Part shown: one piece after another, positions 2,238 to 63,990 of the stretch
How the letters are laid out: each line of letters starts with the position of its first letter
How positions within the stretch are numbered: the stretch's first letter is position 1
DNA from: Escherichia phage FFH2
DNA: 64,000 nucleotides
Sequence record: KJ190158
Reading direction: 5' to 3' (one strand)
Made by a program: the position numbers and the translations under genes
The notes under the pieces: model-generated
Told to the model about the DNA's origin: nothing
What the model saw: only the letters and a program-made list of their open reading frames with translations
Database searches by the model: none

Positions 2238-3056
2238 TTGAGCAAGAAAGAGTCTAACGACAAATACTACACAAACCCTGAGTATGCAGAATATCTTGTT
2301 GGTAGAGTAAAAGACAAGTATGGGAATTGTGCATACGTTGAGCCTTCTGCTGGAAGGGGTTCTTTTTCAAAACTATTTTCAGAGATACTGTCGTACGATC
2401 TAGTACCAGATCCTGAATTTGAAGGACCAACACCGTGCATTCAGGCAAACTTCTTGGAGGTGCATCCCAAGGCAGATGTCTTCATAGGTAACCCACCATT
2501 TGGCAAGAATTCATCTTTAGCTTGCAAATTCTTTAACCATTGTGCATCGTTGCTAGATCTTGGCGGGGCTATAGCCTTCATCTTGCCACGGACATTTGAA
2601 AAAATATTTTTTGCAAACAAACTGGACATGTCTATGCACCTTGTCTACAGCGAAAGGTGCCCTAAGAACTCGTTTTTACTTAATGGCAAACCTTATGACG
2701 TGCCATGTGTTTTCCAAATTTGGGAGAAAAAGGCGTGCAATAGGGATCCTGTAGAGATTGGAGAGAATAGGTTATTTTCTTTTAGCACACCAGATGACTA
2801 CGACTTCTGTGTAAGACGTGTTGGGTATAATGCTGGAAAAGTATTGGGTGATGATGACCCAAAATCTAAAGAATCTACATATTTCATAAAATCTTTAGTT
2901 GACGGTGTTGACAGAGTGTTTGCTGAATGCTATTCTTCTTTTCAAGAAGAAGCAGGTAAGACTGCTGGAATGAAGAGTATAGGCAAGAAAGAACTACAAT
3001 ACATTTTGGAGACCCGGTATGATCAAAAGTATAGACTTGACCAAAGAACTTACTGA
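2238..3056 (+). CDS. N6-adenine DNA methyltransferase (NPPF motif); probable TTG start at 2238 (six-frame ORF 2208 runs through the terminator)
   Basis: FIGNPPFGKNSS is catalytic motif IV of amino-MTases. GGAGG RBS at 2229-2233 lies 5 nt upstream of an in-frame TTG. There is no in-frame ATG near the 5' end. Confidence 0.6.
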   Translation: MSKKESNDKYYTNPEYAEYLVGRVKDKYGNCAYVEPSAGRGSFSKLFSEILSYDLVPDPEFEGPTPCIQANFLEVHPKADVFIGNPPFGKNSSLACKFFNHCASLLDLGGAIAFILPRTFEKIFFANKLDMSMHLVYSERCPKNSFLLNGKPYDVPCVFQIWEKKACNRDPVEIGENRLFSFSTPDDYDFCVRRVGYNAGKVLGDDDPKSKESTYFIKSLVDGVDRVFAECYSSFQEEAGKTAGMKSIGKKELQYILETRYDQKYRLDQRTY

Positions 3057-17101: not shown

Positions 17102-17635
17102 ATGACTTGTGCTAGAAAACCTGATGAACAACGTAACGCCTACGATGAGTATGTGACACCGGAGTGGTGTGCAGAAGGGCTGTATGACCTTATTCCGTTC
17201 CCAGAAGACTGGACCTACTTAGAGCCTTGCAGGAATAGTGCCTCAGGTGTGTTCTACTCCCGTATGCCGTTAGGATCTGCATGGGGAGAAATCCAAGAAG
17301 GTGTTGACTATCTGAATACAGAATACAACCATGTTGACTGTATTATCACCAACCCACCATACAGCTTGGCTCGTGAGTTTGTAGACAAGGCGTTGAAAGA
17401 TGCTGACGTAGTTATTATGCTTTTACGTCTTAATTTTCTGGAAAGCAAAGCCAGATTTGAATGGTGGCTTGATAATGCACCTACCACTGTGATCACAATA
17501 TCTAAGCGTCCATCATTTCAATCAAATGGTAGAACTGACGGGCAAGCATATGCATATTTTGTATGGGACAAGAAAAACCGTCTAGACTTGCCGCCATTTA
17601 TGTGGTTGGCACCACCAGAGGCAGATTTGAAATGA
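17102..17635 (+). CDS. N6-adenine DNA methyltransferase (NPPY motif)
   Basis: CIITNPPYSLAREF catalytic motif IV; small Dam/T4-Dam-like size. Confidence 0.7.
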   Translation: MTCARKPDEQRNAYDEYVTPEWCAEGLYDLIPFPEDWTYLEPCRNSASGVFYSRMPLGSAWGEIQEGVDYLNTEYNHVDCIITNPPYSLAREFVDKALKDADVVIMLLRLNFLESKARFEWWLDNAPTTVITISKRPSFQSNGRTDGQAYAYFVWDKKNRLDLPPFMWLAPPEADLK

Positions 17636-50856: not shown

Positions 50857-51227
50857 TGATCGGTCTCCTTCTTGTTAAGTCTGAATACTGCAATAATAAC
50901 ATTCCCAAGGTGCAGTGTCAAATCATTTCCAAGATACCACAACATTCCACGGTCATCTTTGATGAAAGGGTAACAATCTGGTGCCTTCCAGACATTGTAC
51001 ACTTTCCCAACCTGAAAGAAATCAGGCCCTGTTGGGATTTTGGTACCAGGCCACACTTGAGATACCTGAACACACTCCACCTGCATAATAACAGGGATAG
51101 TCATAGATGTAAATGTTTTTGTTGGTTCTACTACCATAAAAGTCTCCTCTTTGCTCAACAACACTTCCATGTGTTGATAGTTTACATTAGTGACAATCAC
51201 CCCAATTACGACCACACAAGTATTCAC
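50853..51227 (-). CDS. small protein, family member 3
   Basis: FIKDDRGMLWYLGNDLTLH. Confidence 0.4.
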   Translation of the reverse strand: MNTCVVVIGVIVTNVNYQHMEVLLSKEETFMVVEPTKTFTSMTIPVIMQVECVQVSQVWPGTKIPTGPDFFQVGKVYNVWKAPDCYPFIKDDRGMLWYLGNDLTLHLGNVIIAVFRLNKKETDQ

Positions 51228-51543
51228 CTGTGATCTGGAACGGGACTCCCATCATTTTAGAAGCTTGCCAGAAGCAATGTACCACCATTTCGCCCACAGG
51301 ACTCCAGATAAGTTCAAGCTTTCCGTCATCGTTCAAGATAGGATCGTACACCGTGTTTCCGTCTCTGTCAACCACTTCGTTTCCGTCCTCATCCTTGCGT
51401 GCCTTTTTGTACTTATGACCGTCGAACACATGAAGTTTGGCCTCCTGCTCTGCCTTAAATGCTTCCAGTTCTTCGATTGTGTCGAAGGTGTACACAGTCT
51501 TATACTTCGGTGTGTCAGGGACTTGAAGCTGATATTCATCCAT
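51187..51543 (-). CDS. hypothetical protein (118 aa)
   Basis: ORF. Confidence 0.4.
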   Translation of the reverse strand: MDEYQLQVPDTPKYKTVYTFDTIEELEAFKAEQEAKLHVFDGHKYKKARKDEDGNEVVDRDGNTVYDPILNDDGKLELIWSPVGEMVVHCFWQASKMMGVPFQITGEYLCGRNWGDCH

Positions 51544-51735
51544 CTGTTCAGGTAGGTCGTTAAGCTACCCCGCACCATTACGTGCATAGCCATACAGTTT
51601 CCTGTATGGATCGGACTACCTCACTGCCTTGGTAACAAGGCACCTCCCATTTCGACCGCACTTGCTGGCCTACTCTACTCGCTTCTTCACACCAACCTAT
51701 GTTGGAGCTATGCTTTCGATAGTCTCTGAACGTTA

Positions 51736-52242
51736 CTACCAGGTGTAGTTTTTAGAGATATGTTTCCACTGTCTTCTTTGCTTTATAGCCCTGACGGTCT
51801 CATAAGGATATCCAAGATCCCTAATCTCGCATTGTCGTAGACCACTCTGCAACAGTTCGCAAATCTCTATTACCTCATCTTCTGTCAGCACAGCGTTAGC
51901 ATTATACTCACCAACTGGCCTTACTCTGAGGTCATTATCATAGGCGTGCTTGATATTTCCACCAGGGGTGGTCCATTCTAGGTTCCAGTATGCATTGTTG
52001 TACTTATTCCCATCCTTATGGTTCACCCATGTGAGTCTTTCAGGATCTGGGTTTGATACAAAGCATTCAGCAACCAGGTGGTGGACACCTTTTGTGCACT
52101 GCTTCCCCTCGATTAGCATGGTTACGCAAAGGTAACCTCTACCATTATCAAAACAAAACATTGTTGTATGATCACGTTTCGATAAAGGTATTGTTCCATC
52201 ATCAAACACGGTATACCCGTGATAATCAGCTGTTCTAGCCAT
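51736..52242 (-). CDS. HNH homing endonuclease (free-standing)
   Basis: WVNHKDGNKYNNAYWNLEW HNH motif. Paralogous to the nrdD intron HEG. Lies immediately downstream of the DNA polymerase gene. Confidence 0.65.
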   Translation of the reverse strand: MARTADYHGYTVFDDGTIPLSKRDHTTMFCFDNGRGYLCVTMLIEGKQCTKGVHHLVAECFVSNPDPERLTWVNHKDGNKYNNAYWNLEWTTPGGNIKHAYDNDLRVRPVGEYNANAVLTEDEVIEICELLQSGLRQCEIRDLGYPYETVRAIKQRRQWKHISKNYTW

Positions 52243-52377
52243 TTTAACTACACCCCTTTAGTCTTCGCTGCGGATTAGCATATTGAGCTTTTACCATACT
52301 CAGGTGTAAAAGTCAACTTAGCTTCCCCGTCAATTAAAGAGGTTATTCGACATAGATTACTCTATGAAGCCACAATG

Positions 52378-54807
52378 TTATTTATGGTAATAAATAATAC
52401 GACGAACACCTTCATCGTACCACCCACGCTTCACCATTTGGTGGTGCATGAGTATCCCAACTAAGTCACACAACGATGCACCACCATTTTGTTGGTATGC
52501 ATTAAGTAAAGAGTGTTTAGATCGGGTCCAGATGGCATGACCATCAAAAGAGTAGATAAACTTCTTACCCGTTGCTTCCCAGAATTTCTCCAGATCCTCT
52601 TTACGGCCCTTAAGACCAGGGTTGGCATCCCAAAGCGCATCGATTACCCTTTGTCCCAACTCTGGAGAGATGTCCAGCATATCTGCAACTTTATCTTTTT
52701 GTGCCCCGTACATAACCCCATACGTGATAGGTTTACCGTCGTTACGGGACACCTCTCTGCCTGCTACTTTTGTATATGCCTCAGCATTGTTTTGGTGTGC
52801 GTCTCCGTTACTTACAACATCATAATACAAGCCGTTGTCGAACTCAAAGGCACCCCAAGCCCCGATAAGCTGCTCTAAGTTGGACCCGTCAATACCGATC
52901 TCAAAGTATCCAGGAGGAACACCCCACAGACTACGCATCTCTTTACCCATAACCACTTTAGGAGATGGTTTAGGCATGTTTGCACAAATACTGTGTTTCT
53001 GTCTGGAAGTGTTTGTTAATCCAGAGCTTTTAGCAGGAAGCTTATGGTCAATCTTCAAACGTGGGTGATTAAGAAGACCAGTGTCAACCTTATCCTCCTT
53101 GATTGGATCAAGTACCGATCTGCGGTTTCGCAATGATAACCATAAGACGATATCTTTAGCCATCTCTCCGTTCAATTTTTCAAGATTCGGACACAGGTGT
53201 CCAAACGTATCTTTCAGTTGCGGAGAAGTAATAAGTGCCCTAGCTTTTCTACGTATTTTCCCGAATACTTCCTTTTTAATCCTTTCGGAGTTAGGAAAGC
53301 TTCGGAACTTGTGCACTGTTGTCTGAAACTTAGCATCAGTTTTGTTCCAGAAGTTGATAATTAGGTCACAATACTCTGACTCTAAAAGCTCGTCCATGTA
53401 TGCATATACTCGTGCATCAACATCTGCATCAGGTAGAGCTTTCTTCTTGCTGTCTTTAGTTACATCCTTAGTTCTCCACATTGTCGGAAGCCAACCAGCA
53501 CTGATCAGGTATCGCTTAATGTCGTCCTGATTGCTGATTTTCATAGGTATCTTGCAGTCAGGCATTCGCTTCTGCTGCAGATCGCTTATTGCCTGATCCA
53601 TCAGCTCTTTAGGCAAAGGTTGTGGTGTGGAGGTGCCCTTAATATAGCCTCTCAAGAAATCAGCCATCTTATCGTGGTCTTTGCAGCCCATCTCTTCACA
53701 CCATTTTATCCCCATTTTACTGACATCTCCTGTGGAGGTAAATGCTCGCTTAGGTGGGGCTTTGAACTCTAAAGCGCTCATGTCTACAGGATAGCCAAGC
53801 TTATCTTTTAACCATTTCCAACCATTATTGGAGATTGTCCCATCTTGGTTAAACGGCTTTTCAGGGAACTTGGGCCGCTGAGACATTGACAGCTCTTTTA
53901 AAGGTAGTTGTGGTTCAACACGATCAGCTATTTCTTTCATCCACGCATCGCAACGGTCACGTAAAGCAATAGCCCCGTCTATGTCGAAATACACACCCTG
54001 ACGGGCCTGCAGCTCCATCAGGAAGTGCTGCAGCATGCCTCGACGTAGTGCGTTCTTCCAGGTGATCTTCTTGAACCCTTTCGGCTTCTCTTTGGCTGGA
54101 TCGTACATAAAGTTCTGCATGTCAGATTTGCCGTAGAATACACCTTTTGATTCCGCTACCAGCTCTTTCCAGAGCAGCTCCTGGATGATAACGTCCTCGA
54201 ATACACGATCCACATACTTCCACAACGGAAGATCGCGCCAGTCATCAATTTGAACTTTCTGGTTACCAAGGGCGTAGCCCCATGCCATAAGGCCGTGAGG
54301 ACCAACAGGCTGCATTTTCTTAGTAACCGGGTTGAATACAGAGTCCGGACAACCTTTTGGTAAAGGGCGATCAGGCCACAAGATTCGGCTCATCGCCAAC
54401 GTATCAAACAGGTTAACCTGGTGGTCGTTGATAGTCCCCATACATTTAGGATCACGGAACATATCAAAATGAATACCGGATAATCTCTCCATCAGCATAA
54501 AGTCATAACTGTAGCAGTTATGGCAGTTCAAAGCTGTTGGTGACCAGTCGGAATTGCCTGTAAGCCAACCCTCCAACTCCGAAAAATCTGCTATGCGAAC
54601 TTCAAAATCCTTATAAAGAGTTTTCTTTGCCAGAATAAAGTTCTTAGCCTTCTCTATATCCTCCTCGGAGTAGTGTGTGCGGTCATTTAGAGGAAGGAAC
54701 AGCATAAAACGGTTCTTATTCAGCTCTTTAAACAGGCCGCAATGATAATAAAGATCTGGGTCTTCCAAAAGCCCTGAGGCCTCCAGATCGAAGCACCAAT
54801 TACTCAT
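52378..54807 (-). CDS. family A DNA polymerase, T7 gp5-like
   Basis: Exo I FDLEASGL; HCGLF, AWGYALG, AGWLPT, GIDGSNLEQL...FEFDNG (motif A) and KPITYGVMYGAQ (motif B) parallel T7 gp5 blocks; 809 aa. Confidence 0.85.
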   Translation of the reverse strand: MSNWCFDLEASGLLEDPDLYYHCGLFKELNKNRFMLFLPLNDRTHYSEEDIEKAKNFILAKKTLYKDFEVRIADFSELEGWLTGNSDWSPTALNCHNCYSYDFMLMERLSGIHFDMFRDPKCMGTINDHQVNLFDTLAMSRILWPDRPLPKGCPDSVFNPVTKKMQPVGPHGLMAWGYALGNQKVQIDDWRDLPLWKYVDRVFEDVIIQELLWKELVAESKGVFYGKSDMQNFMYDPAKEKPKGFKKITWKNALRRGMLQHFLMELQARQGVYFDIDGAIALRDRCDAWMKEIADRVEPQLPLKELSMSQRPKFPEKPFNQDGTISNNGWKWLKDKLGYPVDMSALEFKAPPKRAFTSTGDVSKMGIKWCEEMGCKDHDKMADFLRGYIKGTSTPQPLPKELMDQAISDLQQKRMPDCKIPMKISNQDDIKRYLISAGWLPTMWRTKDVTKDSKKKALPDADVDARVYAYMDELLESEYCDLIINFWNKTDAKFQTTVHKFRSFPNSERIKKEVFGKIRRKARALITSPQLKDTFGHLCPNLEKLNGEMAKDIVLWLSLRNRRSVLDPIKEDKVDTGLLNHPRLKIDHKLPAKSSGLTNTSRQKHSICANMPKPSPKVVMGKEMRSLWGVPPGYFEIGIDGSNLEQLIGAWGAFEFDNGLYYDVVSNGDAHQNNAEAYTKVAGREVSRNDGKPITYGVMYGAQKDKVADMLDISPELGQRVIDALWDANPGLKGRKEDLEKFWEATGKKFIYSFDGHAIWTRSKHSLLNAYQQNGGASLCDLVGILMHHQMVKRGWYDEGVRRIIYYHK

Positions 54808-55538
54808 ACTGTCTCCTCCTGTGTCTTCTCAGCATTCTTTCTTGCAGCTATTGCATCGTCCCTGTTCTTGAAATACCCAAGGCATTTCCTTTTACCATCT
54901 ACATGAATTCTGGCTACCCATCTTTCATGGGTTTTATCCCAATTCACCCCTGAGCAACCGCTGGTGTTATTATACTGCACGGCTCTTCCACTCTTGTGCG
55001 AAAAACCATTATCTTCGAAGAACTTTCTTGCCCACTCTGCCTCTTCAAAAGTTCTGTACTGGCCTAGCCAGACCCTTTCACCTACAGAGTCTGTGCCTTG
55101 AGCTACCCATGCCCCTCTTTCTTCAGAATAGTGCACCCCGACCCTGCCAGATTTGTTGTTGCTACGAGGTATCTTGCAACTTTTCTTTTTGTTATCTGTA
55201 GGTTCGAGTAGTTGCAAATTATGAATACTGTTGTCAGCCACACCACCTGTTTCCCTTATCTCCTTGATGTGGTCAACCTCATACCCTTCCGGTACAGGAC
55301 CGTTAAACATTTCCCAGATTATAACGTGGGCACCTTTAGTGCAATGCTTTCCTAGACTAACCACAGGCCTGCCATCAGCATCTTGCCCCTTGTCAGCTCT
55401 GGAGCCTGCTGAAGTTTTAACATATCCTACACCGCTGCCTGCCAGAATGTCTATCTTCCAAAAAAGATTTTGACCGTCATACTCCAATATTTCTGACCAC
55501 AAGTGATTAGCTACACAGTGATCTCTGAACTCGTTCAT
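54804..55538 (-). CDS. HNH homing endonuclease with AP2-like DNA-binding repeats
   Basis: EVDHIKEIRETGG HNH core plus two RVGVHY../GVNWDKTHERWVARIHV AP2-type repeats. Inserted between the polymerase and primase-helicase genes. Confidence 0.65.
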   Translation of the reverse strand: MNEFRDHCVANHLWSEILEYDGQNLFWKIDILAGSGVGYVKTSAGSRADKGQDADGRPVVSLGKHCTKGAHVIIWEMFNGPVPEGYEVDHIKEIRETGGVADNSIHNLQLLEPTDNKKKSCKIPRSNNKSGRVGVHYSEERGAWVAQGTDSVGERVWLGQYRTFEEAEWARKFFEDNGFSHKSGRAVQYNNTSGCSGVNWDKTHERWVARIHVDGKRKCLGYFKNRDDAIAARKNAEKTQEETV

Positions 55539-55596
55539 AAAGTGTTCTCCTTAAAGGGGAGGCGGTTGTACTACCCCTCCCACTCTTTGTTAAACA

Positions 55597-57675
55597 TTAA
55601 AAAGGTGTTTCATCATCCTCAAAACCAGGGACCGGATCAGAGGATGGATCATCGTATTGGAGGTCTTCCTGCGTGTCAATAGGCTTGACAGTGGGTGTTA
55701 CAACCTTATCAGCCACAACCTTGCCCATAGGTGTTTCTACAACTGCATGCTCTTGATCCTCAAACATAGCCTGAGGTCTCCAAACAACCTCCCCACCTTC
55801 TCCGTCTGTAAACATTTGCATTTCTTTGTCCCAGTACCAATTACTGGCATCATGGAACTTACCTGTGTGCGGGTCCATAACTAAAGTGTCAGCAATACCT
55901 AAAGTTTTTGCTGGACGGTTCTTAAGACCTACCAGACGGACACGTCCACGAGAACGATCCACCATTTCTTCGGCCTCGACACCTATGACTACCCAACTCA
56001 ACTGTTCAAGCCCAGCCGATCCTCGCAAATTCTCTTTTCGCACAGGATACCAGAAAGGTAACGGGTTACCATCTTTGTCCTTAGGAGGCACAATCTCTGT
56101 ACGTTTGAGGTGAGCGATCACCAAGATAAACACGTTAAACTGCTTACAAAACGCAGCCAGTTGGGTCATAGCCATGTCCAGTTCTTTTCGCTCATCCTTA
56201 ACATTAAGCCCTGAAATTACCATGGACAGGTGATCCAGCACAATATAACGACAATAGTACAGGCAAACCATTTGCTTAAGCTTGGTAATCAACTCGTCCA
56301 CCGGAATAGACCCGAAATGTTTGAACACTTTGATTTTTCCAGCTTTTGCCCATGATTGGTGAATCTCTGCGTGTTCTTGATCAGTTAAAAACTGGCTAGG
56401 ATCTTCAACAAACTCTTTAACATCAAACCCTAACTGGTTTGCATACAAGGAGTTAATTGCTTCCTCTGGATCCTCCTCAAGATGGATCATGCATAGACGA
56501 TCATCCTCTTCATAGTCATCGGCCTTCGGGCATGTCGGGTCCATTAAGTATCTTGCAATACAGTGTTCCAGTTTTTTAGCCACGGTTGTTTTACCGCCGC
56601 CTGATGGACCTGTAAGCATTACGAGTGTCCCTTTGTGCAAGCCTTTTAGCATTTTTTGCAGTTTTGGGAACTCTGCACTGATATCTACCCCGTTGGAAGT
56701 CTTTTTCCGCAAAGACTCGATAGAGAAGTCTTCTAAATCCGACACAGCATCAGGCACATATTTAACAGGGTGCCGGAACATGTTGACAATATCTTCCAGC
56801 TTTTTAGCCTTCAGCATGTCTCGGATATCTTTTACACCGTCAGGGTCATTTACTTCACCAGGGTATTCTACGTGGTAAACGTTATCAGCCATCAAAAATG
56901 CTGCGATATTGTGCGTGGCCTCAACACCTTTAATGACGTGTTTTTGCTTCTCTACCTCGTTAGCTGCATCGTTATCCATTGCCAGCACAACTGTTCCATA
57001 GCTACGGATAAACTTCTCATTGTTTGCAAAAGTATCTACTGCGTTTGCACATCCACAGTTAATTCCAACAAAAGGCAGGCAGGGTTTTCCTGCCAGATCA
57101 CCACCGTTGATAACTGCGTCGATCCCGTCCTGGACCTCTTTAGCCCACTGCTTCACCTTTGCCGGGGCTTTAGCGTTGGTGAGAATCCCTTTTACTTGTA
57201 TCTGATATGCAGCCTGCCATGCTGCAATAACATCACCTTCTCCCTCACAAACGTTAATCTGCTTACGGTTGTTGGAAGATGCACACAGCTTTTGACCAAA
57301 CATCTGGGAGTTGGCCTTTACGATGCCAACAACGGAGAAATGGCCCCTTTGCTCTTTAGGAATAGTCCAGTCACGCTTTTTGAAACCAGACAGATTTCCG
57401 TAGCGGTCGTAATATGGGAAATATGTTGCAGTGACTGTCACACCGTCTTCTTGGGACAATGCTGATCGCACACCAAAATATTGTGCAGCCATCAGACCGA
57501 TATTTTGTTGTGGGACAGGGACAATTTTAGTATTTTCTAAAACAGTCTCTACAGTTTCAACTTCTTTTTCATCACGATAGTCTCGTTTCACACTTCCCCC
57601 ACTTTTATACTTAGTTGCTTTCGGGTTTGGCTCACCGAAACGGTTGTATGCAGATGCCATAAATTTACTTCCCAT
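55597..57675 (-). CDS. primase-helicase (T7 gp4-like: TOPRIM primase + DnaB-family helicase)
   Basis: TOPRIM NVCEGEGDVIAA / AMDNDAAN; Walker A LTGPSGGGKTT; acidic C-terminus ending ...EDDETPF. Confidence 0.8.
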   Translation of the reverse strand: MGSKFMASAYNRFGEPNPKATKYKSGGSVKRDYRDEKEVETVETVLENTKIVPVPQQNIGLMAAQYFGVRSALSQEDGVTVTATYFPYYDRYGNLSGFKKRDWTIPKEQRGHFSVVGIVKANSQMFGQKLCASSNNRKQINVCEGEGDVIAAWQAAYQIQVKGILTNAKAPAKVKQWAKEVQDGIDAVINGGDLAGKPCLPFVGINCGCANAVDTFANNEKFIRSYGTVVLAMDNDAANEVEKQKHVIKGVEATHNIAAFLMADNVYHVEYPGEVNDPDGVKDIRDMLKAKKLEDIVNMFRHPVKYVPDAVSDLEDFSIESLRKKTSNGVDISAEFPKLQKMLKGLHKGTLVMLTGPSGGGKTTVAKKLEHCIARYLMDPTCPKADDYEEDDRLCMIHLEEDPEEAINSLYANQLGFDVKEFVEDPSQFLTDQEHAEIHQSWAKAGKIKVFKHFGSIPVDELITKLKQMVCLYYCRYIVLDHLSMVISGLNVKDERKELDMAMTQLAAFCKQFNVFILVIAHLKRTEIVPPKDKDGNPLPFWYPVRKENLRGSAGLEQLSWVVIGVEAEEMVDRSRGRVRLVGLKNRPAKTLGIADTLVMDPHTGKFHDASNWYWDKEMQMFTDGEGGEVVWRPQAMFEDQEHAVVETPMGKVVADKVVTPTVKPIDTQEDLQYDDPSSDPVPGFEDDETPF

Positions 57676-58459
57676 TAATTCTGCTCCTTACTACAGGCTC
57701 GTTTGCTAAGAATACGGCTTTTGCCCAGCCACGTGGTGTGAGGCTTCGGATCATCTTCGTTCTTGCACTCTTTCCACCCAGCTTGGCGTGTTGCATGGAA
57801 TACCCGCTAACCGCGTCAACTATTTGCGGGACAGGTTTTGTGGCCGGGATTATAAATCCATTACCTATCCAGCCGCAAGTTATTTTTGGATAGGCATCAC
57901 GTGGAGCTATAAATTCAGGAAACCAGGGGTTTACATCATCCTCCGGTAAATACCCGCCATAGTCAGAAGGGTGAAAACGGTAATCAGGTTTGCGCCACAG
58001 TGTGGACATAACACCCACAGGATTCTCTACATGCCACGGGCAATCGTAAATCTCTCCCAACTCTTCTGCAACCCGAGCATCCTTTACAGCATTAATCTGG
58101 ATCAGCGGGTCCTTAGCCAGCTTCTTCTTAAAGTGTGCAGCACCTGACACCGCTAAGTGGGTGCACGGAGGAAATGCAAGAACAAAGTCCGGAGCGGGGT
58201 ACATGCAGAAAGTTTCCTGAGGGAACCATGGATCAATCCAATAATCTACATAGTGAATATTTGGATGATCGGTGATCACCTCTGCATAACTGCCGTGGTC
58301 AGCACCTTCTGCATTAAAGCACAGGCACAGGTACCCAGCTTTTGCCCAGTCAATAACTGCACCACCAGACCCGTCAAATAGGCTCCACACAACACCTTTG
58401 TGGTAGTGTTCTTTGTAGATGAATTTCAATTTGCTGTCTCCTAATGCAAAAAGCCCCAC
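57665..58459 (-). CDS. C5-cytosine DNA methyltransferase-like protein
   Basis: LFDGSGG (motif I-like F.G.GG), FPPCTHLAVSG (motif IV PC) and HVENPVG (motif VI ENV) in canonical order. Confidence 0.5.
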   Translation of the reverse strand: MGLFALGDSKLKFIYKEHYHKGVVWSLFDGSGGAVIDWAKAGYLCLCFNAEGADHGSYAEVITDHPNIHYVDYWIDPWFPQETFCMYPAPDFVLAFPPCTHLAVSGAAHFKKKLAKDPLIQINAVKDARVAEELGEIYDCPWHVENPVGVMSTLWRKPDYRFHPSDYGGYLPEDDVNPWFPEFIAPRDAYPKITCGWIGNGFIIPATKPVPQIVDAVSGYSMQHAKLGGKSARTKMIRSLTPRGWAKAVFLANEPVVRSRINGK

Positions 58460-58480
58460 CCTTTCGGGCAGGGCCTAATG

Positions 58481-58963
58481 TTAAACCCGGATACCTATTG
58501 TATACTCGGTGGATACCAATGTCAAATCTAAATTTAAAATTTCTTGCATCTCATAGTATGCGTCCAGGGTGAGATACATTTCCCCATCCTTTTCTACATA
58601 TTTGTCCAAGTGCTTGAGGCATTTCGGATAACTATCAAGTGCAGCTTTCAGGCACTCAAACTCTGTGCTGTTGATGAACCCTTCCATCTTGGCTACCCGT
58701 TCTGGGGTAACGATAGCACTGTAGTGAGATTTAGCTTCCTGAATGCAATGCGTCCAAGCATCAACCTTCTCTTCGAAAAGCCCGAAGAACTTCTTTTTGG
58801 TGAGCTTCAGATTCTTCAAGTGCTTAAGCACTCGGTTGCCGATTACAGCCACATCACGAAACTTAAGGATCACCTTGTCGATATCCTCGCGGCCTATTTT
58901 CACAAAGCAGGCTTCGCACATTTCAGGGGCTGCGTAACCTACTTTCCACATAAAATCTGACAT
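58481..58963 (-). CDS. hypothetical protein (160 aa)
   Basis: ORF. Confidence 0.4.
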   Translation of the reverse strand: MSDFMWKVGYAAPEMCEACFVKIGREDIDKVILKFRDVAVIGNRVLKHLKNLKLTKKKFFGLFEEKVDAWTHCIQEAKSHYSAIVTPERVAKMEGFINSTEFECLKAALDSYPKCLKHLDKYVEKDGEMYLTLDAYYEMQEILNLDLTLVSTEYTIGIRV

Positions 58964-58975
58964 ACCGCCTTCTCC

Positions 58976-59371
58976 TTATTCCTTAAAAGCTATGATATCA
59001 TAGGAACTTGCAGATGATTCTGGTGAAGAATGACTCCAGTCCAGGTCATCAGAATAGTCAGCGTACTGTGCGCCACTACGCAGTTTGTATTTTACCCACT
59101 TACCTGGTGCAGGGTTTTCACCACCTTCCCATACTTCCCAGCCTTCTGGCAGGCCGTCCTGAGCGTAGTCATCCACCTCACTAATGATCTTAGGGTTTGG
59201 CACCAAGATCCCCGCAGGCTCTTCCTTCCGGATAAGTGTCCACACAGCGTAGGTGTCTGAGCAGGCGCATGATAGTAAAGTATATCCACTATTCAGAACT
59301 TCTGCAAGCTCTTTTTCAGCATCTTCCAATTTGGTTAAGTGGTATTGGATAATCTTCACACCTGTAATCAT
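58976..59371 (-). CDS. hypothetical protein (131 aa)
   Basis: ORF. Confidence 0.4.
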   Translation of the reverse strand: MITGVKIIQYHLTKLEDAEKELAEVLNSGYTLLSCACSDTYAVWTLIRKEEPAGILVPNPKIISEVDDYAQDGLPEGWEVWEGGENPAPGKWVKYKLRSGAQYADYSDDLDWSHSSPESSASSYDIIAFKE

Positions 59372-59676
59372 CAGAAACCTCCCACTTCTTCAGCAAATGC
59401 AGCTGCTGTCGTCGCTGCATCCAGATATGACTCTAGTTCACGGGCTGCACGTTTGTAAATTGAGTGGCGCATATCGTTTGGCAGTTGGTGGAAGTCCACC
59501 TCTTCACCGTTGTGGTAAACATGCACATCAGTGATTTGTCTAAATCCATAATAGTCAACATCAGAATCACGGCACTCTGGGTCTGGCAACTGGACAACTG
59601 CCTGAGCTTCCACAGTGAACATATCGTCAAGTTCGAAATCGATTTCAAAAGTGTATGGTTTATAACGTTTCATCAT
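59371..59676 (-). CDS. hypothetical protein (101 aa)
   Basis: ORF coupled. Confidence 0.4.
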   Translation of the reverse strand: MMKRYKPYTFEIDFELDDMFTVEAQAVVQLPDPECRDSDVDYYGFRQITDVHVYHNGEEVDFHQLPNDMRHSIYKRAARELESYLDAATTAAAFAEEVGGF

Positions 59677-59689
59677 TTGATTGTACTCT

Positions 59690-61015
59690 TTATTGATCAG
59701 ACTTATCTTTCGTAATTAAGGTCGGAGTAAGTTTGTAATAGCGGAAGCCACCACCACCTTGCCAGTTTACAGACTTAGAAATACCCCCTTGATCTTCACC
59801 ATCGATCACTTTTTCCAAGCGCGGAATAATATGGGTATGACAATGATCACCTAGCTCGATTGAGATCCAACGTCTTTTCATCTTGTGAGCTACAGCAGCA
59901 GTAGTTCCCGAACCACCGAATGAATCCAATACCAAATCGCCTTCTAGCGTACACATTTCGAAAATCCGCTTCAAAAGAGCTTCTGGTTTTTTCCCATTTT
60001 TGAAACTAACGCCGCCTTCATTTGCTATTCCATTCCAACTAATGTCTGTCCAAACATCAGTTATTAGTTCTGCAGGTTGCATCTCACCGTCAATTTCCAA
60101 AAGTCTATTGGAGTAAAAGACCATTTGCCTACCATTTGCGATATAAAATCCTTCAACATCCTCATTTGGATGTACATAAACCTTATTCCTATCTCTCTTT
60201 GACTTCTCGATAGTTTCTTTTCTCTTTATTTTAGCTCCACCACCAATTGCAACAGATTGAAATACACGTTCTGCATTATCAATTGCGAATTGTGCTAATT
60301 CATCATCGAATGTATCAGGCAGTTTTTTCTTGGCTTCTTTTGCATCTTTATAGCCATTGGCCTTTGCAAACGCATCGGCAATACCGCACCACGTCCAATT
60401 TTTATAATGGTCGTCCGGGTTTAATAAGTATTTGTTATACCCTGTATCATACCCTTTAGGTATATAGATTTTGTTAAGCGGTTTCTGGGTGCGATCTTTT
60501 GCATATACAAGCAAAAAGTTTGCTGTGGAGAAAACTGTAGCTCCTGTTGCCTTAAATCCTGAAGGGGAGTTTGTGGTCATCGATATGGTATTTAACTGAT
60601 TTGCACGACCAAAAATCTCGTCCATCAAAACTTTTAAATACGCCATTTCGCAATCATCTAAGTGAACGAATATTACCCCATCATCACTTAGAAGATTACG
60701 AATTATTTCTAACCTATCCCTCATTAAGCCCAGCCAAATGGAATGCTCCAGGCTATCATCGTAGTGCTCAAAAGCCCTTCCGGTATTGAATGGTGGGTCG
60801 ATGTAAACACACTTCACTTTGCCTGTATACTCTTGCTCTAGCGCCTTCAATGCTAATAAGTTATCTCCAAAAATCAGTTTATTATCAAAAATATCGTTTT
60901 CGGTCACTTTCTGGCTGCGGTAAGACTTGCTCGAATCTTCTAACAAAATGTGCGGCTCTAGCTTTTTGCGCTCGTTTTTACCTATCCAGGTAAGTTCTAA
61001 TTTAGTTTTGCTCAT
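59690..61015 (-). CDS. beta-class amino DNA methyltransferase (N6-adenine or N4-cytosine)
   Basis: DPPFNTG (motif IV) precedes FGGSGTT (motif I), the circular permutation typical of beta-class MTases. Confidence 0.7.
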   Translation of the reverse strand: MSKTKLELTWIGKNERKKLEPHILLEDSSKSYRSQKVTENDIFDNKLIFGDNLLALKALEQEYTGKVKCVYIDPPFNTGRAFEHYDDSLEHSIWLGLMRDRLEIIRNLLSDDGVIFVHLDDCEMAYLKVLMDEIFGRANQLNTISMTTNSPSGFKATGATVFSTANFLLVYAKDRTQKPLNKIYIPKGYDTGYNKYLLNPDDHYKNWTWCGIADAFAKANGYKDAKEAKKKLPDTFDDELAQFAIDNAERVFQSVAIGGGAKIKRKETIEKSKRDRNKVYVHPNEDVEGFYIANGRQMVFYSNRLLEIDGEMQPAELITDVWTDISWNGIANEGGVSFKNGKKPEALLKRIFEMCTLEGDLVLDSFGGSGTTAAVAHKMKRRWISIELGDHCHTHIIPRLEKVIDGEDQGGISKSVNWQGGGGFRYYKLTPTLITKDKSDQ

Positions 61016-61076
61016 CGTTTGGTGCTCTCCTTAGTTTTTGTGGGGAGGAGTGCCTCCCCTTTATACTCACATCTTA

Positions 61077-61418
61077 CTACTCAAGGTCTTCAGAGTCAAG
61101 CTCAAAAAGAATCAAACTGTGCATGCCTGCAGAGAGATCAACACACCCTGCAACAATAAGGGTCTGATAGTAAGGTTCAGCACCCTCAATGTCTTCGTTA
61201 AAATCTACAACAAGATAGTCACCTTTGTTAAAGGTGTATTTGTCCGATGTAAACGCAAAACCTGCCCAGTCCCCGACTGCAGGATCTTTATCAGTCACCT
61301 TTGTTAGCAGCAGGTCTTTTTCACGAGATCTTTTAGTAAAATCGTGAATCACAACATCCTTCTCTTCAGGAGTTGGATTGCCACACACGTAGTTAACTAT
61401 ATTTCTCCACAAACTCAT
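61077..61418 (-). CDS. hypothetical protein (113 aa)
   Basis: ORF coupled to the helicase gene. Confidence 0.4.
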   Translation of the reverse strand: MSLWRNIVNYVCGNPTPEEKDVVIHDFTKRSREKDLLLTKVTDKDPAVGDWAGFAFTSDKYTFNKGDYLVVDFNEDIEGAEPYYQTLIVAGCVDLSAGMHSLILFELDSEDLE

Positions 61419-62785
61419 ACGTCCCCCTCTTCTGCTCTGGTTTCAAAATCTTTCCTGACAATTTTGTCTAAGTCAGGGAATGTTGTATTGTAAAACTCTA
61501 CGACTCGCGGGTCAACAATAATGTCAACTTCTCTTAGTGGACGCAACAAGTTTATTCCTTGTATTGTCTTAACTCTACTCAAAGCGACATACGTCATCCC
61601 AGGAGAGAAAGCTCCGTTCTTTCCAAGGTCTAGGTTGTAACAATCTAGCGTAAGTCCTTGACTTTTATGAGATGTTACGGCGTACCCAGATTTCAGAGGA
61701 AGTTGCTTGTATGACCCAATCACTACCCTCTCTATAAACTTCTCCATCTTCCTTTCTGCAATGTTGTATCTTTGAGAGGGCTTATACTCGTTATTCTCCC
61801 ACAACCTCTGCTCTATGTCAACCTGTGTTCCATCTTCAAGCTCTACCACCACCGCCTTGTTCTTAAATTTAACAATTGTGGCACGTGTTCCGTTAACATA
61901 ATAAGGTACTTTGTGCGTCGGGTCAACATCGTTGGCGGTTATCATAACTTTCATGCCAATTTTCAACTTCATCTCCTGCTCAACTGGCAGGGTGGAGGGA
62001 AACTTACCCTTCATTTCACCAGTGTATACCTTCTCTGGGGCGTTGATGGCATCATAGAACCTTCTGTTTACTTCCTCTGCTTGTTTGTTGGTGGCGCAAA
62101 TTGTGAGAGCATCTGTTGGTACACCACCTTTGTAACAGCGAGCATTAAGTTCTGCTACAACCTCTTTTATGCGACGACCCTCACGAACACAGTTGAGCAT
62201 TGTGGCAAATCGAATAGACTCCTGTCGGAACTGATCTATTAGGGCTATGTTGTGGAGGTCAAGCTCTTTCCAAGATTCGGTGTAGCAACACAGGTCCGTA
62301 TGGTAGAAGTTGAAGTAGGCTTCCTTCTCCATAGAAGAGACAACAGGAGGTGCCTGGTAAAAATCGCCAAACAATATGACCTGTATGCCTCCGAAAGGTT
62401 TGTCATTTTTTCGAAGGAAGCGGAGTTTCCTATCCATCTCTATAAACTTATCAGCACGGATCATAGAGATTTCATCGATAATTAGGATGGTAAATGCCTT
62501 GCTTTTCAAAGGCTTTGCTGTTTTTGCCCTTATTGCGGTCCAGTCCGACTCCATGCTCACACCTGCTGCAAGATCGAATGTTCGGTGTGCTGTTGCTCCA
62601 TTAACGTTTAAAGCGGCTACCCCTGTCGGGGCAACCGTTATGCAAGAGTCTCCATACATTGACTGGATCATGTTGATGAGATACGTCTTCCCACAACCTG
62701 CAGGTCCTGAAACGAAGACATTCTCACCGCTCATGATTGCAATGAGGGCAGCATCTGTGCCTACGTCATACTGCCCTTTTTCCAT
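61415..62785 (-). CDS. SF1B helicase, Dda/RecD-like
   Basis: Walker A SGPAGCGKTY, Walker B ILIIDEISM, and a C-terminal TSHKSQG..ALSRV motif typical of Dda/Pif1/RecD helicases. Confidence 0.75.
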   Translation of the reverse strand: MEKGQYDVGTDAALIAIMSGENVFVSGPAGCGKTYLINMIQSMYGDSCITVAPTGVAALNVNGATAHRTFDLAAGVSMESDWTAIRAKTAKPLKSKAFTILIIDEISMIRADKFIEMDRKLRFLRKNDKPFGGIQVILFGDFYQAPPVVSSMEKEAYFNFYHTDLCCYTESWKELDLHNIALIDQFRQESIRFATMLNCVREGRRIKEVVAELNARCYKGGVPTDALTICATNKQAEEVNRRFYDAINAPEKVYTGEMKGKFPSTLPVEQEMKLKIGMKVMITANDVDPTHKVPYYVNGTRATIVKFKNKAVVVELEDGTQVDIEQRLWENNEYKPSQRYNIAERKMEKFIERVVIGSYKQLPLKSGYAVTSHKSQGLTLDCYNLDLGKNGAFSPGMTYVALSRVKTIQGINLLRPLREVDIIVDPRVVEFYNTTFPDLDKIVRKDFETRAEEGDV

Positions 62786-63990
62786 TACGCCTCCTCGTAG
62801 ATAATGTCGATGATGTTACCATCACGGTCAACTACGTATTCAATCGGATCGCCATCTTTGCGTGATTCCGGTGCTGCTACGATTTCGTAGCGGCATGCAC
62901 GGCACTTAGCACTGTTGTGTTGGTATGGCACACTAACCACATCCGCAGGGTCAACCATAACCATCATTACAGTGCCATAGCCCGCTGCATACTCTTTGCT
63001 GGCGCAGTGCAGGCCATAAGAACACGCAGCTTCCGGATCATCTTCTACAAAGTTACGAGGCATGGACACAAAAGCACCCTGGTATTGTGGAACTTTACCG
63101 CTGTGCCAATCCACCCACCTGCTCCCGTTAAACTGAACCCCCTTATAGCAAATGATTCGACCATCTTCTGCAACCTGGATGTCATTAGCCTGCATGAAAT
63201 CGTAGAGCATGTTCACAGATTTTGCAGACGGGTTGCGTAGCAGACGGACAAGGAATTTAACATATCGGTCGTCCAGTGTTCCATCTACATAATCTTCCTC
63301 AATTTTCTTTGCAATGGTGGATCGCATCTCTACACCGTAGTAGTAGAGCTTACCATCTTTCATGATCAGGTTGTCTGCAAGTGTGGTGAACTCATTCTTG
63401 CGTTCCAGCCAGACAAGGATTTCACCAATTGCCTCGTCATATTCCTGAACAGAGATATGATCGAAGACTTTCTGGTAAACTTCCTCACTTTCGCTGCGGC
63501 GAATTTCAAAAATGCCTTCGTTGCAGGTGATCTGGAGGAGTTCCCCGCAAATAACTACCAAAGGCTCGATGCTTCGAGTCTGTTGCTGAGACACACTGCT
63601 CACCACCTCCAGCACCGGATCTTTGACTTCTACTAAAGGTTCTTCTGACTTGATTGCCACTCCAGTGAACCCCACACCGTGAACAACACACAGTGGGTAT
63701 ACCACACCCCAACGTTTAACGGAACCTTCCCCTAAGTCTAAGATCATGGCGTACTTACCGTTATCTTCCAGCCCATATCGAAATAAACGGGCCTCTTCAC
63801 GGGTTTCAAAATCCTCACGGGTGTAGCAGACGCTGTCACGGTCAGGATCGAACAGCTCTGGGGCACCTACTGCCAGTGTCCAGGTTGTGTCACCTTTCTC
63901 AATGGCACATGTGAAACCCTTCTTCTCAAGTTCTGCACGGCGGTCGCGTGCTTCTTTACGAGTTTTGAAATGTTCGTAGATGAAAATCAT
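62785..63990 (-). CDS. hypothetical protein (401 aa) in replication module
   Basis: Long ORF coupled to the helicase; no motif recognised by eye. Confidence 0.4.
   Translation of the reverse strand: MIFIYEHFKTRKEARDRRAELEKKGFTCAIEKGDTTWTLAVGAPELFDPDRDSVCYTREDFETREEARLFRYGLEDNGKYAMILDLGEGSVKRWGVVYPLCVVHGVGFTGVAIKSEEPLVEVKDPVLEVVSSVSQQQTRSIEPLVVICGELLQITCNEGIFEIRRSESEEVYQKVFDHISVQEYDEAIGEILVWLERKNEFTTLADNLIMKDGKLYYYGVEMRSTIAKKIEEDYVDGTLDDRYVKFLVRLLRNPSAKSVNMLYDFMQANDIQVAEDGRIICYKGVQFNGSRWVDWHSGKVPQYQGAFVSMPRNFVEDDPEAACSYGLHCASKEYAAGYGTVMMVMVDPADVVSVPYQHNSAKCRACRYEIVAAPESRKDGDPIEYVVDRDGNIIDIIYEEA

Follow-up and report, generated by a model that had tools for sequence, protein, structure and literature searches.

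A compact Dcm-like DNA cytosine-C5 methyltransferase gene heading the replication gene block of Escherichia phage FFH2

Introduction

That orphan DNA methyltransferases (MTases) of phages protect from cognate endonucleases is well established. Here, we follow up a predicted cytosine-C5 MTase gene, along with three further MTase genes, in a 64,000-nucleotide stretch of DNA from Escherichia phage FFH2 (sequence record KJ190158; hereafter the window, with positions counted from its first letter).

The phage 'Dcm-like' family to which the cytosine enzyme belongs has a characterised member, namely the product of a 711-bp dcm gene in phage K42 that acts as the trigger of retron Ec86 (bioRxiv 10.1101/2023.08.16.553469; later Cell Rep 2024;43:114857). 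K42, a KarlJaspers (Bas06, Drexlerviridae) strain, has a genome 95.4% identical to that of the KarlJaspers isolate in the BASEL phage collection. Liquid chromatography-mass spectrometry showed the multicopy single-stranded DNA (msDNA) of the retron to be C5-methylated by wild-type K42 Dcm, but not by a C82A/E128A/K175A/K176A mutant, and mutating the CCTGG site of the msDNA abolished defence. As the Ec86 assays were run in dcm-plus MG1655 and no self-triggering occurred (bioRxiv 10.1101/2023.08.16.553469), these data suggest that the phage enzyme is not a mere functional copy of host Dcm. The combination of a CCTGG trigger site with absent self-activation in a dcm-plus host leaves the true target, or the dose dependence, of the phage enzyme unexplained.

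Results

The FFH2 protein has the motifs and the predicted fold of C5-MTases

The minus-strand open reading frame (ORF) at 57665-58429 very probably encodes a compact, 254-aa DNA cytosine-C5 MTase of the phage 'Dcm-like' family phrog_757 that depends on S-adenosylmethionine (SAM). An initial annotation, made from the letters alone, had described a C5-MTase-like protein with motifs I, IV and VI at 57665-58459 (264 aa when read from GTG 58459). All three motifs were recovered, as LFDGSGG, FPPC and ENPVG, in what is a genuine C5-MTase-fold protein. The gene and its motifs are as follows:

57665..58429, minus strand: Dcm-like DNA cytosine-C5 methyltransferase coding sequence (CDS), 254 aa from TTG 58429
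58361..58381, minus strand: motif I, LFDGSGG, SAM-binding FxGxG loop, aligned with FAGLGG of M.HhaI and FDG of DNMT3B
58163..58171, minus strand: motif IV, PPC, holding the catalytic residue Cys89 (Cys99 when counted in the 264-aa form); P87-P88-C89 invariant
58013..58027, minus strand: motif VI, ENPVG, an ENV variant (Glu145 of the 264-aa form, Glu135 of the 254-aa form); E-N-P-V invariant and aligned with E128 of K42 Dcm
57716..57751, minus strand: C-terminal motif IX-like helix, RSLTPRGWAKAV, with a local BLASTP match to RRLTPRECARLM of E. coli Dcm

Residues 10-261 of the longer form aligned with positions 3-226 of the 247 in the phrog_757 'DNA methyltransferase' profile, i.e. over its full length (E=7.3e-87). 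Homologs comprised 1500 phage records, many of them annotated as cytosine MTases, and 3522 database proteins; in BASEL phage MaxBurger, the gene is labelled 'Dcm-like C5 cytosine methyltransferase'. The gene is thus unremarkable: its family of small phage DNA cytosine-C5 MTases is widespread, and it has been annotated before. Within the phrog_757-type family, G20 and S21 of motif I are nearly invariant, the register of this motif matching that of HhaI, HaeIII and DNMT3B, while the cysteine of motif IV aligns with C82 of K42 Dcm, with Cys81 of M.HhaI (hhalign) and with the PC motif of DNMT3B. Likewise invariant across the family is R-S-L-x-P-R, part of the RSLTPRG motif IX-like helix that closes the protein.

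Structure prediction led to the same family. The model was of high quality (predicted local distance difference test, pLDDT, 89; predicted template-modelling score, pTM, 0.89), and 58 of the 58 Foldseek matches at E<=1e-3 were DNMT3A/B/C or the prophage C5-MTase 3g7u, with named DNA-cytosine methylases as viral structural neighbours. The three-dimensional fold of C5-MTases is therefore present in the modelled protein. Identity to the catalytic domains of DNMT3A and DNMT3B (e.g., PDB 6u8p, 6w89) amounted to only 12-16%, a likeness of analogous architecture rather than of close kinship. We regard it as very improbable that the protein is a DNMT2-type RNA (tRNA) m5C MTase or a catalytically dead, DNA-binding remnant, given that DNA C5-MTases outranked DNMT2, that a homolog methylates msDNA (bioRxiv 10.1101/2023.08.16.553469) and that the family shows no variation at any catalytic residue.

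In the proposed mechanism, Cys89 of the PPC loop would attack C6 of a flipped-out cytosine and Glu135 of ENP would protonate N3, whereupon the methyl group of SAM would be transferred to C5 to yield 5-methylcytosine (5mC).

The FFH2 enzyme resembles K42 Dcm more than host Dcm

The window protein was 53% identical to KarlJaspers Dcm over 235 aa (E=4e-86), with C99, E145 and K192 (numbered in the 264-aa form) aligned to C82, E128 and K176 of KarlJaspers/K42 Dcm. The two proteins share FPPC, ENPVG and RSLTPRG and are of similar size (254 vs 236 aa). They differ in the loop between motif VIII and motif IX, the usual place of the target-recognition domain (TRD), which reads GYSMQHAKLGGKS in the window protein and DNPGWAKTGGKS in K42 Dcm; moreover, just one of the two K42 lysines K175 and K176 is conserved. 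Their contexts differ as well, in that the window gene lies in a 137-kb myovirus, where it overlaps a primase-helicase gene. Formation of 5mC has been shown only for this 53%-identical homolog, by analogy with which the FFH2 copy would be an active enzyme.

Compared with E. coli host Dcm (b1961), the protein appears to belong to the same superfamily and to share its chemistry, but is far shorter (254 vs 472 aa). For the K42 homolog, dependence on a CCWGG site is reported. BLASTP revealed no significant similarity between the two (best E=1.1; a 12-residue motif IX patch at E=2.3), and no Vsr homolog was found within the window. Hence, 'Dcm-like' is a functional label and does not denote orthology.

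The initial annotation had also read the unusual motif variants as a possible sign of a non-canonical modification, an interpretation that the comparison with K42 does not support: the 53%-identical homolog carries the same FPPC and ENP and makes 5mC. To our knowledge, transfer from carboxy-SAM by CmoX enzymes is the only natural alternative chemistry.

A non-methyl transfer of this kind, in which host-made carboxy-SAM would give rise to 5-carboxymethylcytosine, has hallmarks that can be looked for: an SPPC motif, an Arg at the position of M.HhaI Asn304, a phage CmoA and often a CmoY ligase (PMC12783734). The window protein has FPPC, and its family [FY]PPC, as opposed to the SPPC of SpCmoX (PDB 8yf3), and the FPPC/ENP variants are common to the K42 enzyme, an ordinary 5mC maker. 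Searching the window with E. coli CmoA and CmoB (tblastn) returned only matches with E>=1.0, and the MaxBurger annotation lists neither CmoA nor CmoY in the equivalent 64 kb. As for the Asn304 position, both the hhalign and the HMMER alignments of the window family end after motif IV, before that position is reached. With the testable hallmarks absent, we consider such a chemistry highly improbable for the FFH2 enzyme.

An atypical C-terminal half and uninformative site counts qualify the assignment

Several observations weigh against an assignment as a 5mC-forming, site-masking enzyme, the first set of which concerns the protein itself. It matched neither Pfam PF00145 (even at E<=10) nor NCBIfam. 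Motif VIII (QxRxR) was not recognisable, the region containing Y-x-K-x-T, nor was the GN of motif X after the motif IX-like helix, and the target-recognition region spans only ~35 residues. Searching PDB sequences with the family profile gave nine matches, all sub-threshold at E~0.3; all nine were DNMT3B or M.HaeIII, with alignments running from FDG to PC. A search with the single protein similarly produced only sub-threshold matches, all to C5-MTases. In the hhalign comparison with M.HhaI (E=0.012; M.HhaI sequence verified end to end against 10mh_A), the family profile aligned over motifs I-IV and no further, and motif X was not placed. Judging from its sequences, the phrog_757-type family truly departs from typical C5-MTases in its C-terminal half.

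The N-terminal half provides the link to Pfam. Among 27 aligned family members, 18 matched PF00145 at profile positions ~4-94 (motifs I-IV), and three passed its gathering cut-off, at 24.7-28.5 bits; membership of the window protein in PF00145 is thus transitive. The initial annotation had held that failure of the ORF to be assigned to any MTase family by hidden Markov models would refute it: assignment did fail with Pfam and NCBIfam, yet succeeded with phrog_757.

The second set of adverse observations concerns the target site and the benefit to the phage. The TRD-equivalent loop follows the pattern GYSxQHxKLGGKS in the window protein and DNPGWxKxGGKS in the K42 enzyme, and the CCWGG site can therefore not be transferred from one to the other. 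Site statistics did not discriminate target specificity either: the 142 CCWGG sites (z=-1.3) are neither avoided nor enriched, and the 358 GATC sites are near expectation. Our literature search found no methylome or restriction-digest data for rV5/Vequintavirus. Finally, in BASEL phenotyping, Vequintavirinae were 'exceptionally susceptible' to restriction-modification (RM) systems, apparently without effective protection (PMC8594841).

Some other sites of restriction type are depleted across the whole window relative to Markov expectation. These are CTAG (0.58), GTAC (0.65), GAGCTC (3 vs 13), CGATCG (1 vs 9), YGGCCR (4 vs 20) and RCCGGY (5 vs 15), with GTCGAC and CCCGGG at 0.

The loop of ~35 residues in place of a TRD, together with the lacking motif X, might alternatively mean that the enzyme recognises a site unlike that of K42 or host Dcm, possibly via DNMT3-like oligomerisation, or that it uses a cofactor other than SAM. 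We judge this improbable; if true, the protein would be a minimal C5-MTase whose specificity or chemistry is new.

Site masking is probably narrow

For a 5mC-forming FFH2 enzyme, the benefit would probably lie in masking one short site from cognate restriction enzymes. Site masking is the default expectation for a phage orphan MTase, and each MTase would mask at most its own short site. By analogy with the K42 enzyme, the site may perhaps be CCWGG-related, although this is uncertain, and both the site and the anti-restriction role of the window copy are extrapolated from relatives. The initial annotation had gone further in proposing broad anti-restriction methylation by four MTases. This is at odds with the RM sensitivity of Vequintavirinae in the BASEL assays, which implies that any protection is narrow (PMC8594841).

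The same sensitivity, in phages that carry four MTases, could also mean that an active C5-MTase serves mainly another purpose, such as marking DNA for replication, recombination or packaging or countering a defence other than RM, or that its gene is a mobile, near-neutral passenger. Consistent with this, restriction resistance of Drexlerviridae was not linked to their MTase genes in BASEL (PMC8594841), the MTases of four unrelated phage lineages share 48-63% identity yet lie beside non-homologous helicases, and one viral structural neighbour joins an MTase-like domain to a helicase. However, the BASEL panel comprised few RM systems, none with an obvious C5-methyl-sensitive cognate site, and the invariance of catalytic residues over thousands of homologs argues for selection on activity. 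Together with the generally established protection by phage orphan MTases, this leads us to consider a main role outside anti-restriction unlikely, and to retain narrow site masking as the probable benefit.

Enzymes of this type also come at a known cost, as they can trigger retron Ec86/Eco1. The gene therefore predicts that rV5-like phages used in therapy may be vulnerable on hosts with the retron, e.g., E. coli B.

The Dcm-like gene was probably transferred horizontally between lineages

The lineages that share the MTase at 48-63% identity are Vequintavirus, Kagunavirus, Krischvirus and Drexlerviridae. A conserved MTase-helicase module was ruled out, as the adjacent helicases in Vequintavirus, Kagunavirus and Drexlerviridae are non-homologous; in Krischvirus Phi1, the MTase gene is found among small early genes and has no helicase neighbour. 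The presence of similar MTases in unrelated phages beside unrelated helicases points to horizontal transfer of the Dcm-like gene, as far as sequence comparison can tell.

The structural neighbour mentioned above is a 1397-aa protein of an uncultured Caudovirales phage (BFVD A0A6J5SE15, 'Helicase/UvrB, N-terminal'), whose MTase-like domain shares 27% identity with the window protein at a template-modelling (TM) score of 0.61. The model indicates an MTase-helicase fusion, an echo of the recurrent adjacency of MTase and helicase genes.

The gene most likely starts at TTG 58429 and overlaps the primase-helicase gene

Of the interval 57665-58459 proposed initially, the stop at 57665 stands and the start probably does not. 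The following elements bear on the start and the expression of the gene:

58438..58442, minus strand: AGGAG ribosome-binding site (RBS), 8 nt upstream of TTG 58429; an RBS is annotated there in Murica too
58451..58476, minus strand: intrinsic terminator hairpin with 11 pairs, a GAAA loop and a T-run, found by terminator scan; annotated in Murica (KT001917)
58497..58525, minus strand: sigma-70-like promoter match, TTGACA, 17 nt, TACAAT (11/12), a consensus match only
55597..57675, minus strand: primase/DnaB-like helicase gene (phrog_239, E=2e-159; DnaB_C, AAA_25)

GTG 58459, the start of the 264-aa form, falls within the terminator hairpin (58476-58451). TTG 58429, in turn, is preceded by the RBS, serves as the start in the Murica and BASEL annotations and gives the 254-aa length of the main database cluster P0001. 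Because of these converging indications, the CDS is most likely 57665-58429, and the start at GTG 58459 probably lies 30 nt too far upstream.

The hairpin separates the upstream ORF from the Dcm-like MTase gene, which is the first CDS after it. Promoter-like matches in the region were as numerous as expected from shuffled sequence, making the match at 58497-58525 weak evidence. It lies immediately upstream of the hairpin, such that a transcript from there would start ~14 nt before the stem. The hairpin might play both roles, terminating upstream transcription and stabilising the 5' end as a stem.

At its 3' end, the MTase gene (TAA, 57667-57665) shares 11 nt with the primase-helicase gene (ATG 57675), an overlap also present in the Murica and BASEL annotations. 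The overlap suggests that the MTase would be expressed together with the replication genes, and thereby methylate newly replicated phage DNA. The initial annotation had described translational coupling to the primase-helicase gene in a replisome operon. The 11-nt overlap within the replication module bears this out in part; coupling from the MTase to the primase-helicase is plausible but not required, since the latter gene carries its own AAGGAG (57689-57684) 8 nt upstream of its ATG.

Three further MTase genes are part of the conserved gene content

As initially annotated, all four MTase-like ORFs are found at their proposed positions and are MTase-like by PHROG, Pfam or motif evidence. Apart from the Dcm-like gene, they are:

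59690..61015, minus strand: orphan Type III Mod-like beta-class N6/N4 amino-MTase, 441 aa (PF01555, E=1.7e-41; phrog_67, 2e-61)
17102..17635, plus strand: small NPPY amino-MTase, 177 aa (phrog_799 'DNA methyltransferase', E=5e-67)
2238..3056, plus strand: small NPPF amino-MTase-fold protein, 272 aa, with gamma motif order (phrog_5172, no function label)

The 441-aa protein had been proposed as a beta-class amino-MTase and is one: it scored 143 bits against the PF01555 cut-off of 26.7, and DPPF (~residue 73) precedes FGGSGTT (~residue 370), i.e. the beta-class motif order. Its best solved relatives are the Mod proteins of H. pylori (E=2.7e-28) and EcoP15I (E=7e-23), and its N-terminal 175 aa share 34% identity with P1 Mod. 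With 441 aa, the protein is shorter than Type III Mod subunits (~620-645 aa). No Res-like gene lies beside it, its neighbours being small ORFs without assigned function and a PIF1-like superfamily 1 helicase gene, and the MTase therefore counts as an orphan.

The two remaining genes had been called small N6-adenine enzymes, of which the amino-MTase motifs and fold hold. The 177-aa protein gave sub-threshold Pfam matches to EcoRI_methylase and Dam. In the 272-aa protein, which matched phrog_799 weakly (4.5e-13), EPSAGxGxF and GNPPFG are invariant across the family, whose profile matched Ta1320, a putative MTase, at E=9e-4, with METTL5 and M.TaqI as weak matches. The protein thus has a predicted amino-MTase fold and would act on either DNA or RNA.

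In the equivalent 64 kb of MaxBurger, the BASEL annotation lists the same four genes, three as 'putative N6 adenine methyltransferase' and one as Dcm-like, and no fifth MTase was seen there. Four MTase genes in 64 kb are conserved content of the genus, not a chance accumulation. All four are already annotated, and one enzyme of the Dcm-like family has been characterised. Beyond correct annotation, the importance of the gene set is slight, given that it is conserved in >100 sequenced rV5-like phages and labelled in curated records. The target sites of the four MTases would bear on why these phages stay restriction-sensitive despite carrying them.

The Dcm-like gene heads the replication gene block

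A megablast search with window positions 55500-63000 matched 120 phage records, 111 of them with >=80% query coverage at 90-99% identity. The matched records come from Vequintavirus (rV5-like) phages of Escherichia, e.g., JLBYU08, nomo, Murica and several BASEL phages. On the minus strand, the genes for rIIB, a PIF1-like helicase, a hypothetical ORF, the Mod-like MTase and three small ORFs are followed by the terminator, after which come the Dcm-like MTase, primase-helicase, HNH endonuclease and DNA polymerase genes. The Dcm-like gene thus heads the replication gene block. The three small ORFs between the two MTase genes lack an assigned function:

58481-58963, minus strand: small ORF, phrog_12900
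58976-59371, minus strand: small ORF, phrog_11995
59371-59676, minus strand: small ORF, phrog_4240

The last of these, which encodes 101 aa and immediately follows the Mod-like MTase gene, gave weak matches (E=1.5e-5) to phrog_1573 and phrog_2060, which covered the C-terminal parts of these two 'DNA methyltransferase' PHROGs. A role as a detached MTase accessory domain was ruled out by tblastn, as the ORF occurs only in Vequintavirus, apart from a faint match in an Erwinia phage, and was never found fused to an MTase.

Among the matching entries were at least 16 unannotated GenBank records of the MG0656xx series (e.g., MG065659, MG065635, MG065644) titled 'Campylobacter phage', with C. jejuni as host, that are ~97-98% identical to the FFH2 coliphage. 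These records look mislabelled or contaminant-derived; the genuine Campylobacter phages CPt10 and PC5 share only 38-42% identity with the Mod-like MTase.

Between the primase-helicase gene and the DNA polymerase gene lies a free-standing endonuclease ORF with HNH_3 and AP2 domains (54804-55538, minus strand), which is present in a subset of relatives (HdK5, JES2013, O157 typing phage 4) and is missing from most, where megablast coverage begins just past the ORF. The DNA polymerase gene itself is split (51190-54807, minus strand): at 99% identity to the MaxBurger polymerase, the segment 54807-52384 corresponds to residues 1-808 of that protein, and the segment 51540-51190 to residues 809-925. 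The insert of ~843 nt contains a 168-aa HNH-like ORF (51736-52242), and a sub-threshold match to the Rfam group I intron model RF00028 (52393-52164; 26.8 bits vs the 50-bit cut-off, E=7e-4) begins exactly at the polymerase break. The insert, which MaxBurger lacks, probably represents a group I intron that carries a homing endonuclease gene.

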